Source: a virus. From it: DNA of 38,502 nt. Numbering within the stretch: the stretch's first letter is position 1; the number at the start of each line of letters is the position of its first letter. Below, in pieces: positions 961-23,653 of the stretch. The stretch lies in IMG/VR virus record IMGVR_UViG_3300045988_053169, positions 1-38,502 of that record; one strand, written 5' to 3'. Under the pieces are notes generated by a model that was not told the DNA's origin, made no database searches, and was given only the letters and a program-made list of their open reading frames with translations. The translations under genes and the position numbers were made by a program.

Positions 961-2336
961 ATATCATCAAGTATTATCAGGACCTCTTAGAGGTGGGCGA
1001 GGACGAGCGCCAGCGGATGGATTTTGTGCTGAGCGCAATCCACGAGTATAAAAGCAGTGATGGATACCGCCTTGCGCAGGATGCGCGGCTCTACTACACC
1101 GGCGAGAATCCCACGATCAACCGGTATGAGAAAATCGTCTATGACTTCAAGGGCATGGCGCACCGGGATATGTACACAGCCAACCACAAAATTGCGTCAA
1201 AGTTCTTCGGGCGCGTGGTTGACCAAGAGGTATCGTATCTGCTGGGCAATGGCATCACGTTCAGCGAGGACAGCACAAAAGATAAATTGTGTGATTGCTT
1301 TGATGAGGATATGCAGGATGCAGCGCGCGAGGCTCTTATTAGCGGTCAAGCGTTTGTTTTTTGGAACTACGACCACACGCAGGTTTTTACCGCCGAAGAA
1401 TTTGCGCCGCTATACGACGAAGAAAACGGTGCTCTGATGGCAGGCATCCGCTTTTGGCAGATTGACGAAAGCAAGCCGCTGCGTGCTGTGCTGTATGAGG
1501 TGGATGGATACACGCAGTACATCAAGCGCAAAGACGGCGAAATGCAGGTGCAGCAGCCGAAGCGCCCGTACAAGCTCAAAGAGCGCCACAGTGAGGCGGA
1601 CGGCACAGAAATCTATGCGGGCGAGAATTACCCATCTTTCCCGGTCGTGCCGCTTCGGAACGGGAAATTCGCGCGGAGCGAGATGCAGGGCCGCCGAAAC
1701 ACAATTGACGCGCTGGATTTGGCCAGCAGCAACATGGTCAATAACGTGGACGAGGGAAACTTGATCTACTGGGTTTTGACCAACTGCGGCGGCATGGATG
1801 AGCTGGACGACGCGCAATTTATTGAGCGTCTGAAAACGACCCATGTCGCCCATGCGGACGGTGACGAGGGCGCGAAAGCAACACCTCAGAGCATAGAGGC
1901 CCCATATGCGGGCACACAGCAGACCATCGACATGCTGACAAAACGGCTGTATGACGACTTCCAGGCGTTCGACAGTTCGGCCGTGTCCGCCGGGAATCAA
2001 ACGGCGACGGCAATTAAAGCCAGCTATGTTCCGCTTGATCTCAAATGCGATAAGTTCGAGGCGTGTGTGACGCGGTGCATCAAGGGCCTTCTGGCGGTTG
2101 CTGGAATCGACGATGAGCCGACATATACACGTAGCAAAATCATCAACGCGCAAGAGGAAATGCAAACCCTGATGCTGGGAGCGGCCTACTATGATGATGA
2201 ATACATTACAAAAAAGGCGCTCACGCTGCTTGGCGATGCAGACCAGTACGAAGAGCTGATGAGGCGGAAAGCGGCGGAAGAAATCGACCAGAGTATGATG
2301 CAGCAAGAGGGGCTGATGGGCAATGCCGAAGCCTGA
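954..2336 (+). CDS. Portal protein (SPP1 gp6-like)
   Basis: 460 aa with a GTG start overlapping the terL stop. N-terminal motif YYTGENPTI. Sits between terL and the MuF gene. Confidence 0.85.
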   Translation: MVNIIKYYQDLLEVGEDERQRMDFVLSAIHEYKSSDGYRLAQDARLYYTGENPTINRYEKIVYDFKGMAHRDMYTANHKIASKFFGRVVDQEVSYLLGNGITFSEDSTKDKLCDCFDEDMQDAAREALISGQAFVFWNYDHTQVFTAEEFAPLYDEENGALMAGIRFWQIDESKPLRAVLYEVDGYTQYIKRKDGEMQVQQPKRPYKLKERHSEADGTEIYAGENYPSFPVVPLRNGKFARSEMQGRRNTIDALDLASSNMVNNVDEGNLIYWVLTNCGGMDELDDAQFIERLKTTHVAHADGDEGAKATPQSIEAPYAGTQQTIDMLTKRLYDDFQAFDSSAVSAGNQTATAIKASYVPLDLKCDKFEACVTRCIKGLLAVAGIDDEPTYTRSKIINAQEEMQTLMLGAAYYDDEYITKKALTLLGDADQYEELMRRKAAEEIDQSMMQQEGLMGNAEA

Positions 2337-3840
2337 TTATGCTCACAAGTGGACGGACAAGCAACTGTCGGCGCTGGAAAAGCGCATTGCGGCAGAGTTT
2401 AAGCAGGCGGCCGAAGAGCTGACGGACACTGTAAACGCCTTCTTTGAGGCGCTTAAAAAGCGTGACGCAGAAATGGCCGCAAAGGCCGAAGCGGGCGAAA
2501 TTACCGAGCAGGCTTACAAGCAATGGAGACTGGCCCAAATCGGGCGAGGAAAACGCTTTGAAGCCTTGCGCGATAAAGTAGCCGAGCGGTACACAAACGC
2601 GCATGAAGTGGCCGTTGCTTACGCCAACGACGCAACGCCTGGAATTTATACGTTGAATCGCAACTATGCCGCATACACGATTGAGCAAGTCAGCGACAAA
2701 GCAGATTTTACACTGTGGGATGAGCAGACGGTGCGGAGGCTGATTGAAGAGCAACCGGGCCTTATGCCGTATTATCCACCAAAGCGTGCATTAAAGCGCG
2801 GCATTGACCTGGAATATGGTAAAAAGCAAATTACAGCCAGTATAACAAGCAGTATTTTGCAGGGCAAAAGCATATCCAGGATTGCGGATGATCTGCAGCA
2901 ACGCATGGAAAACATGAGCCGGGCAAGTGCAATCAGAACGGCGAGAACATCCGTTACAGCTGCGCAGAATGCGGGAAGAATGGACAGTTACCACGCCGCT
3001 GAAAAGATGGGCATCAAGCTGAAAAAGGAATGGCTGGCCACGCTGGACGGGCGCACACGCCACGCGCACGCAATGCTGGACGGCCAGACGGCGGAAACGG
3101 ACAAGCCGTTTCATGTGGACGGCTATGAGATCATGTATCCCGGTGACACAAGCGCACCGGGATATCTTGTATATAACTGCCGCTGTACGCTTATTGCAGC
3201 GCTGGACGATGCGCCAAAAGCCCCGAACCCACTGCGGCGCGCACGTGACCCGGAAACGGGAAAGAGCATACTAATATCAGATATGACCTATGCGCAGTGG
3301 GTAAGCTGGAAGAAGTCTGAAAACCGGTATGTGTGGGATACGTACATCAAAAAAGGCAAAAAACTCTCGTCCGACCGGGCACAATGGGCGGAATACAAAA
3401 GCGTTCTGGGGAAGAATGTTCCCGGCACTCTTGATTCCTTCCAGAATCTAAAATATAATGAGCCTGAAAAGTGGGCACGGCTGAAAACGGATAAACGGCA
3501 AACGGATTTTGTAAATAATGCTCCGTGCGTTACTACACCGAAAAAATTTACGGGGTATTTCCTTAAATTTGGGGCAAAGCACGCGGATCAGTTTTTCAAT
3601 GTCGGGTATACGGAAAAGGATGTTTTGCAGCTGCGGTATGACATTGCACGGCAGTTTGACATGCAAAAAGCGCAAGATTTTAGGAAACTTCAAGATGGAA
3701 GTGAAAAGTTTTCTATGTATATGCAGCTCGGTATTGATGGAAAGGAAAAGAGTTTTTTAGTTTGCTGGATTTCCGAACCGGGCAAAGATAAGCCGAGAAT
3801 AACAACGGCGTATAGAAAGGATGTGCCTAACAATGATTAG
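2323..3840 (+). CDS. Minor head protein (MuF / SPP1 gp7 family) fused to a C-terminal add-on domain of about 190 aa
   Basis: The motif YNCRCTLIA and its position after the portal are typical of MuF. The tail contains the linker AEYKSVLGKNVPGTLDSFQNLKYNEPEKW. The terminal block KFTGYFLKFGAKHADQFFNVGY...FLVCWISEPGKDKPRITTAYR is DUF6883-like from memory. Confidence 0.8.
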   Translation: MPKPDYAHKWTDKQLSALEKRIAAEFKQAAEELTDTVNAFFEALKKRDAEMAAKAEAGEITEQAYKQWRLAQIGRGKRFEALRDKVAERYTNAHEVAVAYANDATPGIYTLNRNYAAYTIEQVSDKADFTLWDEQTVRRLIEEQPGLMPYYPPKRALKRGIDLEYGKKQITASITSSILQGKSISRIADDLQQRMENMSRASAIRTARTSVTAAQNAGRMDSYHAAEKMGIKLKKEWLATLDGRTRHAHAMLDGQTAETDKPFHVDGYEIMYPGDTSAPGYLVYNCRCTLIAALDDAPKAPNPLRRARDPETGKSILISDMTYAQWVSWKKSENRYVWDTYIKKGKKLSSDRAQWAEYKSVLGKNVPGTLDSFQNLKYNEPEKWARLKTDKRQTDFVNNAPCVTTPKKFTGYFLKFGAKHADQFFNVGYTEKDVLQLRYDIARQFDMQKAQDFRKLQDGSEKFSMYMQLGIDGKEKSFLVCWISEPGKDKPRITTAYRKDVPNND

Positions 3841-3991
3841 GGAATTTGACAAAGTTAGAATTATTGCATCTGGGAAAACAGGCGTTGTTGTCGATGTAAG
3901 GAATACAAGTGATACATATTATCTTGTTGAATTGGACGATGACAACGAGATTATTGATTGCACAAAAAGAGATATTGAAAAATACGAATAG
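3833..3991 (+). CDS. Small SH3-like (DUF4926-like) protein, 52 aa. Candidate immunity or partner protein for the MuF C-terminal domain. Not in the supplied ORF track.
   Basis: My own translation gives MIREFDKVRIIASGKTGVVVDVRNTSDTYYLVELDDDNEIIDCTKRDIEKYE. The ATG overlaps the MuF stop and the ORF lies in the same low-GC island. The AGGA is 11 nt upstream, which is weak spacing. Confidence 0.5.
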   Translation: MIREFDKVRIIASGKTGVVVDVRNTSDTYYLVELDDDNEIIDCTKRDIEKYE

Positions 3992-4067
3992 CACAAGCAA
4001 TTCCACTCAATGGAAAACCGCTATTAACCGATGGCGGCTTTTTATGCCCATTTTTAGGAGATGCGCC

Positions 4068-4466
4068 ATGAAATTAACACTTGACGATCACAGCGACGAG
4101 GTGCTTTCGGCCCTTGACGCAGCTATGGCAAGAGGGCTTGAAAAATGCGGGCTTGTGGCAGAGGGGTATGCAAAAAAGCTGTGCCCCGTTGATACCGGCA
4201 ACCTGCGCAACAGCATCACGCACACGGTAGACTCCGGCGAAAAGGCCGCCTATGTTGGCACAGACAGCGAGTATGCCGTCTATGTCGAGATGGGTACGGG
4301 CAAGTATGTGACAGGCGGTAGACCCACCCCGTGGGTTTACAAGGACGCAAAAGGCAATTGGCACATGACGCACGGTCAACGCGCACGGCCGTATATCAAG
4401 CCCGCAGTGGCAGATCACGCGCAGCAATATCAAAAAATTATCAAAAGTGAGCTGGAGGATAAATAA
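4068..4466 (+). CDS. HK97 gp10-like phage protein (neck or tail-attachment family)
   Basis: AGGAG RBS precedes the ATG at 4068. CPVDTGNLRNSI and YAVYVEMGTG are gp10-family-like motifs. Confidence 0.7.
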   Translation: MKLTLDDHSDEVLSALDAAMARGLEKCGLVAEGYAKKLCPVDTGNLRNSITHTVDSGEKAAYVGTDSEYAVYVEMGTGKYVTGGRPTPWVYKDAKGNWHMTHGQRARPYIKPAVADHAQQYQKIIKSELEDK

Positions 4467-4484
4467 TCCTTCGGCTTTTTATTT

Positions 4485-4513
4485 TGCAGCTGTTTAAGGC
4501 AGCTGCATTTTTA
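4485..4513 (+). terminator. Intrinsic terminator
   Basis: tgcagctg / cagctgca 8-bp stem, 7-nt loop, then TTTTTA. Confidence 0.6.
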
Positions 4514-4596
4514 TAAGTTTGGTAAAACGTCGAAGCACTGACGTTTGTATAAATTGCGAATGCCGAAGGACCGGCACCGAAGAAAAGGAGCAAAAG

Positions 4597-5220
4597 ATGG
4601 CAATTACTCGGAAACTGCTTAAAGGTATGGGGCTGACCGACGAGCAGCAGGACACTATCATTGAAGCCCACACCGATACCGTGAACGGCCTGAAAGCGGA
4701 CGTTGAACGCTATAAAGCTGACGCGGAGAAGCTGCCCGCCGTCCAAAAGGAACTGGATGAGATCAAGGGCAAGGGTGAAGGCGGCTATAAAGAGAAGTAC
4801 GAGGCCGAACATAAAGCCTTTGAGACTTACAAGAAGGCCGTTGACACTGAAAAGGCAACCGCCGCCAAAGAAAAGGCAGTGGAAGCCGTGTTGAAAAAAA
4901 TCGGTGTATCCGAAAAGCGCTTGCAGAGCGTGGCGAAGCTGGCAAAGGCTGACGGCCTGCTTGATACGCTGGAACTGGATGAGGACGGAGCTGTAAAAGA
5001 TGCCGACAAGCTGGAAAAGAGCCTGAAGGACGGTTACAGCGAGTACATCACCACCACCAGTACAAAGGGAGCTGACACAGCCACCCCGCCTGCCAACAGC
5101 GGCGGCGCAAAGCTGACGATGGCCGACATCTACAAAAAGGACGAAAAGGGGCGCTATGTCATGGATTATGAGGCGCGTCTGAAGGCCATTGAGGAAAACC
5201 TGAACAACCAGAACACATGA
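4597..5220 (+). CDS. Scaffolding protein
   Basis: AAGGAG RBS. The 207-aa product is acidic, K/E-rich and coiled-coil. It lies immediately upstream of the capsid gene. Confidence 0.75.
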   Translation: MAITRKLLKGMGLTDEQQDTIIEAHTDTVNGLKADVERYKADAEKLPAVQKELDEIKGKGEGGYKEKYEAEHKAFETYKKAVDTEKATAAKEKAVEAVLKKIGVSEKRLQSVAKLAKADGLLDTLELDEDGAVKDADKLEKSLKDGYSEYITTTSTKGADTATPPANSGGAKLTMADIYKKDEKGRYVMDYEARLKAIEENLNNQNT

Positions 5221-5233
5221 AAGGAGCCATGTA

Positions 5234-6172
5234 ATGGCAGCAACTAAAGTTGAAACCCTGACCACCCCCCGCGACAGTCTGCCCAATGTCTACACCAGCG
5301 TGACTGCGCGGGAACTGGACTTTGTGACCCGCTTTGCCGACAACTGGGGCGCACTGCGGGAAATCTACGGCATCATGCGGCCCATCCGCAAGCAGGCAGG
5401 CACCTCGCTGGTGTCTTACACCGCCAGCGTTGCGCTGGAGAGCGGCGCTGTGCCCGCCGGTGCTGTAATCCCCTATAGCAAGGCCACTATCACCCAGGCC
5501 ACAAAGGAAGACATCACCCTGCAAAAGTACGCAAAAGCCGTGCCCATCGAAGATGTGGACAAGTACGGCGCGACAATCGCCGTACAGAAGTCCGATGACG
5601 CTTTCCTGACAAAGCTGCAAAACGAGGTGATGAGCAAATTTTACACCTTCCTGAACACCGGCAGCCTGACCGGCGAGGCTGCCTCCTGGCAGGCCGCTCT
5701 GGCGAAGGCTCAGGGCGAGGTGCTGAACAAGTTTGCCACCATCCAGAAGGACGTGACCGAGGTGGTTGGTTTTGCCAACATTCTCGACGCTTACGACTAT
5801 CTGGGCAGCGCTCAGGTGACCGTGCAGAACGCTTTCGGCCTGACCTACATCAAGAACTTTATGGGTTATAGCACCCTGTTCCTGCTGCCCGCAACTCAGA
5901 TCGCCCGCAACAAGGTCATTGCAACCCCCGTTGAGAACATTGACCTGTATTATGTTGACCCCTCGAGCGAGTTCGCCAGCCTGGGCCTGACTTACACCGT
6001 AAGCGGTGAAACTCCCCTGATCGGCTTCCACGCACAGGGCAACTATGGCACTGCTGTGGGTGAGAGCTTTGCGGTTATGGGCATGGCGCTGTGGGCTGAG
6101 TACCTGGACGGCATTGCGGTCATCACTGTCAATCCTGCTGCAGCTAAGGCCGCCGTGAACGCCAAGGGCTGA
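5234..6172 (+). CDS. Major capsid protein
   Basis: 312 aa with a strong RBS, placed after the scaffold gene, with composition typical of HK97-fold capsids. Confidence 0.85.
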   Translation: MAATKVETLTTPRDSLPNVYTSVTARELDFVTRFADNWGALREIYGIMRPIRKQAGTSLVSYTASVALESGAVPAGAVIPYSKATITQATKEDITLQKYAKAVPIEDVDKYGATIAVQKSDDAFLTKLQNEVMSKFYTFLNTGSLTGEAASWQAALAKAQGEVLNKFATIQKDVTEVVGFANILDAYDYLGSAQVTVQNAFGLTYIKNFMGYSTLFLLPATQIARNKVIATPVENIDLYYVDPSSEFASLGLTYTVSGETPLIGFHAQGNYGTAVGESFAVMGMALWAEYLDGIAVITVNPAAAKAAVNAKG

Positions 6173-22193: not shown

Positions 22194-22553
22194 AAAAACA
22201 CCTCCTTCTCAAATATCTTGTGGGTTAAAAAACATCACTTTTCGGCGTCATTTAGTACGTTTTGCTTTCTTTTTGTGACAACGTGTTAGTGTTATCATAT
22301 ACGCGAAGGATTGGTAAAAAGATGCCTGCAGGCCATTTTCCGACCGGCTTTTTACCAGCACGATGCTACTGTATAAGCACGAGGTACGCACTATGCACGG
22401 ACTACCAAGGCCCGCAAAGTCACATCATGGGCGGAAGAGACAAACCGGTGGAAAACGCACATACAAAGGACGGGCAGCCACACCACTGCGTAGCTGCCCG
22501 ATCACCTGACAGCCCTTGTCATCCGGCGGGGCAGCAGAAAGGGGAAATGCGTA

Positions 22554-22691
22554 ATGACACAAAACAAAAGCCAAGACATTGATTATTTGCGAAAATTAGC
22601 ATTAAAATGCTTAAAGCGGCTCTCCCCCAAAGAAGCTATTGATTTGTACATAGATATAAATAATAGGGTGCAAGATGAGGGGCAAAATTGA
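22554..22691 (+). CDS. Possible 45-aa ORF (not in the ORF track)
   Basis: AAGGGG lies 9 nt upstream. MTQNKSQDIDYLRKLALKCLKRLSPKEAIDLYIDINNRVQDEGQN is helical-looking. It converges on the repressor gene stop. Confidence 0.3.
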   Translation: MTQNKSQDIDYLRKLALKCLKRLSPKEAIDLYIDINNRVQDEGQN

Positions 22692-22694
22692 TTT

Positions 22695-23126
22695 TCATTT
22701 TTTCACCAGCTTTGCGGATGCAGCCGCAATGAATTGTATAAGCTCTTCATCTGTAGCTTCTGTTTTAATCCATTTTTCCACATCATCTTTAGTAAGCTCA
22801 TCAGCCTTTTTGGCTGGTGAGCTTTTTTCTTGCATTTTTTTAGCCAGTGCCACAGCCGCAGCAAGCGTTTTTACATCTTCCGGCACATCTTTGTACTGAT
22901 CGTCAACCGTTTGGCTGTCATCGCCTTTTAAATATTGTACCGTTATCGGCCTGCCGAGCTTTTCGGTAAAGTATGAGGCTAAAATTTCAAGATTTATGTC
23001 TGTGCATCCGCCACCTTTCTTCCATCGAGACACTGTCGGCTTGGAAAAACCGGCATCAACCGCAATTTGAGATGGTGAACTTCCAAGCTCTTTGCACAGT
23101 TTTACATAAGCATTATAAAAATTCAT
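22695..23126 (-). CDS. CI-like repressor (XRE HTH)
   Basis: SPSQIAVDAGFSKPTVSRWKKG is an HTH motif. 143 aa. Divergent from the cro-like gene. Lies in a lower-GC module. Confidence 0.75.
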   Translation of the reverse strand: MNFYNAYVKLCKELGSSPSQIAVDAGFSKPTVSRWKKGGGCTDINLEILASYFTEKLGRPITVQYLKGDDSQTVDDQYKDVPEDVKTLAAAVALAKKMQEKSSPAKKADELTKDDVEKWIKTEATDEELIQFIAAASAKLVKK

Positions 23127-23158
23127 AATTTCACACCTCTGCTTCTGTGCAAGTTGCT

Positions 23159-23324
23159 AAAGTTTACAAAATTACCAGAAAATGCTTTACAGTAAACGCA
23201 AACCTTGCTATACTGTACTTGTTGGTTACGAAAGTTTACCAAGTAAACAATCTGAGGTATAGCAAAGCCAGGCAACTTGTTATAGATATTCTGCAATTTC
23301 ACTATAACACAGTTAGTAAACTTT
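23159..23324. promoter_or_regulatory. Operator-like repeat cluster (AAAGTTTAC / GTAAAC half-sites)
   Basis: AAAGTTTAC occurs at 23159..23167 and 23231..23239, and inverted at 23316..23324. Palindrome GTTTAC-caa-GTAAAC at 23234..23248. An extra GTAAAC at 23192..23197. Confidence 0.45.
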
Positions 23325-23352
23325 TGCAACCGCAAAGCGACTACAGCGGCAA

Positions 23353-23388
23353 TAAAAAAGCTATCTACTGTCCGTTAGTAGATAGCTT
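23353..23388 (-). terminator. Intrinsic terminator acting on leftward transcription
   Basis: Perfect 12-bp stem 23358..23369 / 23377..23388 with a 7-nt loop. A6 on the plus strand gives U6 on the minus-strand RNA. Confidence 0.7.
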
Positions 23389-23653
23389 TATCCCAAAGTT
23401 TTTTACCAGAACAAGCTTGCAACAGAGAAACCGACCAAGGTTCTTTATGATCGAGCAAGCACACGATGCCTTGTGTGATGCAAATTCTCTGTTTGCAAAA
23501 CGGACTTGCAATTCTTTGGGCTTGCCGTAACCTTTGGCAGTTTTGGGACTGCCGTATAGCCATACGCGTTACGCAATTTCTTTAGTCTGGAACGGGCATA
23601 ATCAAAAGTTTGGTCAAGGCCGACCTCACTCCCTTTCTGCCATATCTATGGCA
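23353..23653 (-). ncRNA. Predicted non-coding transcript of about 300 nt (or attenuated leader) between the promoter and terminator above
   Basis: Bounded by a promoter and a terminator. No ORF with an SD. Contains several hairpins, two of them with complementary 7-nt loops. Confidence 0.4.

Follow-up and report, generated by a model that had tools for sequence, protein, structure and literature searches.

Temperate phages are known to append polymorphic C-terminal domains to the MuF head protein, and the resulting MuF toxins, which are restricted to temperate phages and abundant in the human gut, were catalogued by Jamet et al. (2017, BMC Biol 15:75, PMC5576092), with nucleases, metallopeptidases, ADP-ribosyltransferases and RelA-like domains among their C-termini. 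MuF-fused ribonucleases (RNases) of the BECR type (PBECR) have likewise been predicted, and proposed to be packaged and injected, by Iyer, Burroughs, Anand, de Souza and Aravind (2017, J Bacteriol 199:e00245-17, PMC5512222), and the Pfam family DUF6883 has since been renamed BECR-Tox3 in a preprint that describes, computationally, loci of the order MuF-DUF6883-DUF4926 and reads them as toxin-immunity loci (Pham et al., bioRxiv 10.64898/2026.08.28.747851, 29 Aug 2026). Here we analyze a locus of this general kind in IMG/VR virus record IMGVR_UViG_3300045988_053169, a complete contig of 38,502 nucleotides (nt) that we refer to as the window, in which a MuF gene bears a C-terminal tail of the DUF6883 type and is followed directly by an open reading frame (ORF) of 52 codons. 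The locus is best read as one for a MuF-family polymorphic toxin, carried by a temperate phage of the siphovirus type from gut Oscillospiraceae/Clostridia. The architecture as such is already known, as MuF polymorphic toxins since 2017 and as the MuF-DUF6883-DUF4926 trio since the 2026 preprint; what the present locus and its relatives add to the literature is a partner family outside the Pfam DUF4926 model, the joint exchange of the partner and the sheet half of the tail, a possible promoter inside the gene, and chromosomal copies that are 5'-truncated.

With the toxins of Jamet et al. the locus shares an N-terminal PF04233 domain encoded in the packaging and head module of a temperate, Firmicutes-type phage, a C-terminus that varies among related chassis, and a small ORF (<150 amino acids, aa) that stands directly downstream only where a toxin domain is present. 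It differs from the 2017 catalogue in that most of the alternative tails on the chassis found in the window lack any Pfam match; the terms DUF4926 and SH3 are absent from the text of PMC5576092, in which DUF6883 was not searched for. With BECR-Tox3 it has in common the DUF6883 match and conserved residues situated on the pre-alpha region and on strand beta4, the predicted model would fit the topology described, and the small ORF occupies, directly downstream of DUF6883, the position held by DUF4926 in the preprint. Unlike the partners at the preprint's BECR-Tox3 loci, that of the window has no Pfam DUF4926 match, and it belongs to a family of at least 233 clusters that carry no Pfam annotation.

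An earlier note on this DNA, made by a model from the letters alone, had taken the first part of the long ORF for an ordinary MuF/SPP1-gp7 head protein with the motif NCRCTLIA, extended past the head domain by a linker and a terminal block. The motif and both of the stretches quoted for the extension are present, and Pfam Phage_Mu_F (PF04233) matches residues 169-291 (nt 2827-3195) with an E-value of 7e-19. The protein also matches PHROG 115 'minor head protein' (E 3e-41) and is named 'SPP1 gp7 family putative phage head morphogenesis protein' by IMG, while the SPP1 gp7 model TIGR01641 scores 38.6 bits, slightly below its cut-off of 39.65. The gene ends in TAG at 3838-3840. The note had also assigned the terminal block to the DUF6883 pattern, and the identity was reproduced: DUF6883 (PF21814) matches residues 403-498, and the tail reaches the Pfam gathering score of 27 bits marginally, scoring 27.4 bits when its 121 aa are scanned alone and 23.4-25.6 bits when it is embedded in longer sequence. 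The model is matched as well by 15 of 16 tail homologues (best E 1.3e-7), and it was the sole BECR-family model matched at E<=1 in a Pfam scan of the MuF protein, with no similarity to PBECR1-5 so far as these models belong to the library scanned. The accompanying statement that the activity of the domain is uncharacterized holds experimentally, but the family has been assigned computationally to the BECR ribonucleases, as BECR-Tox3, in the preprint cited above.

An AlphaFold2 (AF2) model of the tail built with the 16 homologues (mean confidence, pLDDT, 82) begins with a short helix and the segment that holds His420, followed by a long helix and an antiparallel sheet of four strands, and its predicted order of pre-alpha region, alpha helix and strands beta1-4 fits that given by Pham et al. 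for colicin-like BECR RNases. Eight residues are conserved in at least 95% of 54 unique tail cores, namely K408, K415, H420, R438, D440, R492, T495 and R498; the first five lie in the helical half (the His420 codon is 3580-3582) and the last three on the final beta-strand. As the active site of PBECR domains and colicin D is described as a histidine in an N-terminal helix together with a C-terminal threonine or serine (PMC5512222), the His420/Thr495 pair of the tail, with Arg492 and the basic residues, fits that signature. In BFVD the model aligns best, at TM-scores of 0.5-0.64 and 14-22% identity, with a protein of 316 aa named 'zinc-binding metallo-peptidase' and with the C-termini of two 'minor capsid proteins' that are 473 and 497 aa long, and thus the fold appears to recur on distant phage proteins, MuF-type ones included; polyvalent-protein domains are among the other BFVD matches. 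The tail is most likely a metal-independent, colicin-D-like BECR endoribonuclease with tRNA or another stable RNA as its probable target, and its catalytic set would comprise His420 with Arg492, Thr495 and Arg498.

The 52-codon ORF, which is missing from the list of ORFs supplied with the sequence, was confirmed to begin as described in the earlier note, such that it overlaps the MuF stop by 8 nt. An upstream ATG would yield an alternative of 56 aa (3821..3991), and the start at 3833 is favored because homologues begin MI[RKNE]E[FY]D. The gene has a G+C (GC) content of 32.7% and is under purifying selection, with a median ratio of nonsynonymous to synonymous substitution (dN/dS) of 0.19; this plus-frame value supports the plus-strand genes, and the minus-strand ORFs in the cassette region are short. 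It is called in public gene sets as a 'hypothetical protein' and is listed in 86 assembly-collection blocks. Twenty-two contigs with the small ORF were examined, and the names seen for the family were 'hypothetical protein' (a RefSeq entry included) and, in one virome record, 'NifZ domain'. When the tail and a partner ORF were searched by tblastn against plasmids and phages, the sole carrier of the pair was an unannotated fecal phage contig, MT837981.1.

The small ORF had been taken for an SH3-like protein of the DUF4926 pattern, and of this the fold stood and the membership did not. The product is SH3-like in its predicted fold: the AF2 model (pLDDT 96) is a barrel of five strands, which Foldseek aligns with HspQ (5ycq) at a TM-score of 0.86 and comparably with KOW, Tudor and CAP-Gly domains. 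Pfam DUF4926 (PF16277), however, matches neither the ORF of the window nor six close and distant partners of diverged tails at E<=1. The family comprises 259 hits at 90% clustering (the figure of at least 233 refers to clusters at 50% identity), and precomputed Pfam domains are absent from all 120 hits listed. Seven of 111 representatives match DUF4926 weakly (best E 1.3e-3) and 35 match the generic MSSS SH3 model; a gene of OP018674.1, the presumed counterpart of an Enterococcus phage gene called DUF4926 in PMC12590732, has a weak DUF4314 score. The small ORF, which holds the DUF4926 position and is not a member by the Pfam test, may as such be a remote or divergent relative of DUF4926, or an analogous SH3-like immunity protein. 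Two forms of the family can be distinguished, a short one of 51-56 aa, to which the window protein belongs, and a long one of 62-68 aa that has KGVPGGW...W as a conserved insert between strands (alignment columns ~40-55); an invariant cysteine (C43 in the window protein) and E33/D21 are common to both.

The association of tail and partner was followed across a comparison set of approximately 185 related loci, among them 105 tail loci and 80 loci (L106-L185) on viral contigs whose chassis is 76-94% identical to residues 1-300. The linkage of tail and small ORF is strict: at each of the 105 tail loci a family member starts -17 to +5 nt from the stop, overlapping by 4-17 nt, usually 4 or 8 nt, or leaving a gap of at most 5 nt, and the family is absent from 79 of the 80 chassis loci, all of them without a DUF6883 tail, and present in the remaining one (L185), which has the tail. 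The two parts travel together in these loci, and the small ORF is missing where other tails are found.

Within this linked pair the partner is tied more closely to one half of the tail than to the other. Locus L186 is 97% identical to the window at the nucleotide level over 3196-3671, a stretch that takes in the last part of MuF, the linker and the tail's helical half with His420; past 3671 its sheet half is 47% identical, and its partner is a 68-aa 'long' form with 35% identity. Most members of the 90% cluster to which the window protein itself belongs have this L186-type allele. Among 58 unique triples, divergence of the small ORF correlates with that of the sheet half at r 0.83, with a partial r of 0.64 given the helical half, against a partial r of 0.21 for the helical half itself, and no discordant pairs (similar sheets with dissimilar partners, or the reverse) were seen in that set. 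Within DUF6883 cassettes a smaller unit of presumed specificity, the beta-sheet half plus the small ORF (~3672-4015), is exchanged, and the sheet half would serve as the surface on which immunity specificity is determined.

The larger unit that encloses both parts is itself replaced among relatives. In 30 of the 80 chassis loci MuF ends after its domain and the gp10-like gene follows directly, and the extensions of the other 50 form 10 clusters, of which nine have no DUF6883 core and one is of the DUF6883 type (L185). Of the nine other tail clusters three are HExxH types, two are JAB-like types with HxHPxG, and several have no recognizable motif; nearly all lack a Pfam match, one being weakly similar to anthrax lethal factor, and most have a different kind of small ORF next to them downstream, some of these partners being Cys-rich and one belonging to DUF7675. 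Examples of alternative tails are found in L113 (~4490-5240), L117, L148, L155, L143, L130, L107 and L106. On the left, DNA homology with relatives ends at 3312-3323, or at 3416 in L106 and L108, with which part of the linker is shared; in L106, L108 and L109 the matches of the tail hidden Markov model are confined to linker positions. On the right, homology resumes at 4016 or 4068.

The stretch bounded by these junctions is also the one over which base composition falls. Local GC descends from ~54% to 38-44% between ~3300 and ~4050 (38.5% in the sheet half), and the sole other island as low lies at ~22.2-23.4 kb. The dip noticed earlier is genuine, although the hand count of 301/720 over 3301..4020 was not exact: the figure is 294/720, or 40.8%, against a window mean of 54.6%, and as the standard deviation of 720-nt windows is 4.5%, the segment is ~3 standard deviations low. 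From this composition horizontal acquisition had been surmised. An exchangeable module with mapped junctions is indeed what we observe, but recent acquisition by this phage was ruled out as the cause of the low GC, as every cassette of the clade is equally AT-rich (0.37-0.49, compared with 0.52-0.61 for the chassis); low GC therefore marks the module rather than a recent event. Variable tails, junctions that coincide with the GC dip, strict linkage and the L186 exchange together support the proposed layout of a polymorphic toxin with its immunity gene on a MuF chassis.

Two further elements bracket the distal part of the cassette. The promoter-like sequence within the linker coding region (Table 1) is conserved at synonymous positions: among 20 loci that share <95% nt identity, fixation is 95-100% at those third codon positions from which TTG and TATAAT are built, whereas third-position conservation over all codons averages 0.55 and reaches 0.95 in 4% of them, and although the residue encoded at the -35 element varies (F/L/V/I), T is invariably the last base of its codon. 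In L185 the variant TTTACA-17-TATAAT is found, and the alternative cassette of L106/L108 has TATAAC. No in-frame start codon lies between the motif and Met447 (the methionine of 'FDMQ'), and a transcript from this putative promoter would therefore mainly yield the small protein. The terminator-like hairpin, in which L007 and L008 have stem-preserving substitutions, belongs to the conserved right flank that begins at 4016 and is common to other cassette types. By analogy, the two elements together resemble a moron nested in a late gene. In colicin E operons a constitutive immunity promoter lies inside the toxin gene, and the putative element at 3431-3459 parallels it; alternatively, the conservation of the promoter-like sequence could reflect a conserved recombination anchor.

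Shortened copies of the module also occur. Genes for 5'-truncated MuF-tail proteins of 306-315 aa (P0286-P0297) start at the equivalent of M198 and are accompanied by the small ORF and the gp10-like gene; those at L008:1952-3541 and L010:1493-3054 adjoin host genes (MutY-like, M23 peptidase). The truncated form is found on contigs of up to 685 kb, both alleles occur in it, and several copies have R438W or D440N at otherwise conserved tail residues. That the 306-311-aa cluster members are alternative gene calls of intact phages was considered and ruled out, as homology in L008 and L010 starts at 2873 and host genes flank it. These chromosomal copies resemble orphan toxin-immunity modules. In two loci from different samples (L011, at 3869-3871, and L012), an in-frame TAG at the equivalent of Ser332, which is the junction of chassis and linker, splits the 331-aa MuF from the linker and tail, for which a gene of 126 aa with a TTG start is called; the split could represent decay, read-through, or a free form of the toxin.

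Table 1. Features of the MuF locus and its cassette in the window (AF2 helices and strands are numbered along the tail model).
Feature	Position	Strand	Basis and remarks
Putative MuF-toxin gene, 505 aa (MuF chassis, linker and DUF6883/BECR-Tox3-type tail)	2323..3840	+	ORF, Pfam
Conserved MuF chassis, residues 1-330	2323..3312	+	76-94% identity in 80 viral contigs; GC 53.5%
Exchangeable low-GC cassette (linker, tail and small ORF)	3313..4015	+	Homology breaks against alternative-tail relatives; GC dip
Linker, residues 331-384	3313..3474	+	Alignment; common to some other tail types; PHROG 21033/115 matches
Putative promoter-like TTGATT-17 nt-TATAAT in linker coding sequence	3431..3459	+	Sigma-70-like consensus scan
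Tail, helical half, residues 385-449	3475..3671	+	Pre-alpha region; AF2 helices H25-28, H47-60
Tail, four-stranded beta-sheet half, residues 450-505	3672..3837	+	AF2 strands E67-71, 77-85, 92-100, 108-114
GAAAGGA, putative ribosome-binding site of small ORF	3815..3821	+	Read from the sequence; inside the 3' end of MuF, 11 nt before ATG 3833
Small ORF, 52 aa, SH3-like barrel, putative cognate immunity protein or neutralizer	3833..3991	+	ORF, AF2, linkage
Terminator-like hairpin with U-run	4010..4045	+	-14.4 kcal/mol, z -3.6; between small ORF and gp10-like gene, mid late operon
HK97-gp10-like head-tail gene	4068..4466	+	Pfam PF04883; right-hand neighbor of cassette

Beyond what is documented above on domain identities and predicted folds, on the boundaries and strict linkage of the cassette parts, and on conserved residues, purifying selection and co-replacement, we infer RNase activity, physical neutralization, packaging and delivery by the virion, and an ecological role, in the following manner. 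By analogy with SPP1 gp7, the N-terminal ~330 residues would carry the protein into the capsid beside the portal, and a low-copy, portal-associated head protein could then enter the next host with the DNA, delivering its C-terminal domain. There the DUF6883/BECR-Tox3 domain of ~120 residues, joined through a linker of ~55 residues, would cut tRNA or another stable RNA. The 52-aa SH3-like protein, presumably made by translational coupling to the MuF gene, would bind the beta-sheet half of the tail and block the RNase, a neutralization that would shield both the producing cell during assembly and lysogens from incoming toxin, and the cassette (~3313-4015) would be exchanged by recombination among related phages. 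We regard this MuF toxin-immunity mechanism, taken as a whole, as reasonably probable. Its biological role may be competition or a lysogeny decision, as proposed by Jamet et al., or counter-defense, as proposed by Iyer et al.

Several points nonetheless weigh against this mechanism. The segment around His420 is modeled with low confidence (pLDDT 53-61). Structural confirmation of the BECR fold was attempted by Foldseek comparison of the tail model with the PDB and failed, since the matches are weak: the best, at TM ~0.4, are to NTF2-like folds, MqsR (3hi2_B) is a weak match at rank 10, and a chain of a Salmonella toxin-antitoxin complex is another at rank 18. Sequence and profile searches of the PDB with the tail, the tail profile and the small ORF returned nothing useful. 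An SH3-like barrel is, moreover, a generic binding fold, and the small ORF falls outside Pfam DUF4926. The divergences of all the modules are correlated through shared ancestry (chassis against tail, r 0.72), which inflates the correlations and makes the L186 recombinant the stronger argument; the case for co-variation rests mainly on the partial correlation and on this one clear recombinant lineage. No experiment on toxicity, RNase activity, binding or packaging exists for any DUF6883 protein, the preprint having validated BECR-Tox2 and not BECR-Tox3, and the C-terminal BECR domain of phage Mu's own MuF is predicted to be inactive (PMC5512222).

This last observation, together with the suggestion in the same work that the Mu domain is perhaps RNA-binding, is what lends some weight to the idea that the tail is not toxic and extends the head protein in a structural or nucleic-acid-binding role, for instance as an inactive BECR domain holding the DNA end or an RNA, with the small protein as an assembly chaperone or minor head/neck component. 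The locus does lie inside the head morphogenesis operon, between MuF and the gp10-like connector, and small SH3-like barrels are common in phage structural modules. We nevertheless consider such a role very improbable: 30 of 80 close relatives have neither tail nor small ORF, so neither is needed for assembly, other relatives have enzyme-like domains of unrelated kinds at the same position, the His/Thr/Arg residues of the putative catalytic set are conserved in at least 95% of cores, and allele-specific co-replacement of the sheet half with the partner is unexpected for a generic chaperone. To a similarly small degree we would credit a prophage-resident toxin-antitoxin, abortive-infection or addiction module that is fused to MuF and acts in the lysogen without delivery by the virion. 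Such a module would account for the moron-like bracketing of the distal tail and small ORF by the promoter-like element and hairpin, and for the persistence of truncated copies with the small ORF in bacterial chromosomes beside host genes, and the BECR fold is common to toxin-antitoxin toxins of the RelE/MqsR type. The locus does not, however, qualify as a stand-alone type II toxin-antitoxin system, as in the window its toxin domain lacks a separate start codon and forms the C-terminal end of a virion protein; the putative internal transcript would give the small protein and no active toxin, the toxin of intact phages is always the C-terminus of a virion protein (the MuF region is present in 98 of 107 tail-containing reading frames), and R438W and D440N in truncated copies suggest decay of the toxin with immunity kept.

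More deserving of consideration, though still unlikely in our estimation, is counter-defense or host takeover, in which the injected RNase would cut CRISPR RNAs, defense RNAs or tRNAs and the small protein would protect the producer only late in infection. This was proposed for MuF- and portal-fused PBECR domains by Iyer et al. (PMC5512222), and it agrees with the metallopeptidase-like HExxH and JAB-like HxHP motifs of alternative tails, which are typical of polyvalent early effectors, as well as with the polyvalent-protein domains among the BFVD matches. The PBECR proteins of that work are discussed as counter-defense effectors without dedicated immunity genes, however, whereas the tail in the window has a partner gene, and a dedicated, co-varying inhibitor with an allele-specific swap is a hallmark of toxin-immunity systems under kin discrimination. 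Under pure takeover neither a putative lysogen promoter for the small ORF nor truncated chromosomal copies that keep it would have an obvious purpose, and the confinement of MuF toxins to temperate phages (PMC5576092) speaks in the same direction.

The remainder of the window is consistent with the phage type assumed above. On its left, Pfam matches and gene calls place terminase, portal and MuF genes, followed by those for gp10-like, scaffold and capsid proteins; further along, Pfam matches a GH25 endolysin as well as a tyrosine integrase, a helix-turn-helix (HTH) repressor and a Bro-N/ANT antirepressor, and the last three indicate that this siphovirus-type phage is temperate. Relatives derive from Oscillospiraceae/Clostridia metagenome-assembled genomes and human-gut viromes. 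The second low-GC island (~22200-23400, 40-44%) lies between the HTH repressor and the antirepressor, in the lysogeny-switch region, and a 143-aa minus-strand ORF within it (22695-23126) has no Pfam match. A second variable site is found at 4483-4498, between the gp10-like and scaffold genes, where L003, L106 and L107 have ~430 nt extra; a 127-aa PF25682 Phage_VG64 gene, which is called between the same two genes in L002, L003 and L006 and not in the window, probably sits at this site. An Rfam scan of 3000-4600 on both strands matched no RNA family.

The general concept having been published, the value of the locus is incremental, and it lies in giving experiments a clean point of entry. In the human gut MuF toxins are probably common, and the types that have been tested are ADP-ribosyltransferase and pyrophosphokinase only. 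As cited in PMC5576092, the EFV ADP-ribosyltransferase of Enterococcus faecalis V583 is an experimentally studied MuF toxin, and adenosine 3'-pyrophosphokinase MuF toxins have been studied experimentally in PMC12226406; both resemble the present locus, as it is read here, in having a MuF chassis and an enzymatic domain that an immunity protein can counteract, and differ from it in the chemistry of the toxin. The cassette of the locus is clearly bounded, its two natural alleles share a near-identical background, its His/Thr/Arg set is invariant and its partner is 52 aa long; such a locus is a convenient one in which to ask whether a capsid protein delivers an RNase, how lysogens stay immune, and how toxin-immunity specificity is re-assorted. 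It also draws attention to a large SH3-like small-protein family and to a hot spot at which about ten effector domains lack annotation.

Colicins D and E5 and the CdiA-CT tRNases likewise combine a conserved delivery part with a variable C-terminal RNase and an immunity gene downstream, and in contact-dependent inhibition (CDI) and Rhs systems allele-specific toxin-immunity pairs are exchanged by recombination, while 'orphan' 5'-truncated modules keep the immunity gene. It is tempting to view the present locus as a capsid-delivered analogue of CDI and colicins in gut Oscillospiraceae, with an immunity family outside current Pfam models. The putative synonymous-site promoter (3431-3459) and terminator (4010-4045) would then form a lysogen 'moron' within a late gene, expressing immunity only and leaving the toxin silent, the sheet half and partner would be swapped as a pair, and the truncated copies would act as reservoirs of orphan immunity; we offer this fuller picture tentatively, as a possibility that we presently doubt more than we favor. 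No sequence similarity to toxins of the colicin/CDI type was found in the PDB sequence and profile searches, and to our knowledge a 52-aa SH3-like barrel is unlike the folds of ImmD, ImmE5 or CdiI. The likeness lies instead in the paired replacement of the L186 type and in the truncated copies that keep the small ORF, and the principal difference in the route of delivery, which here would be the phage capsid rather than a receptor/translocation domain or a secretion system.

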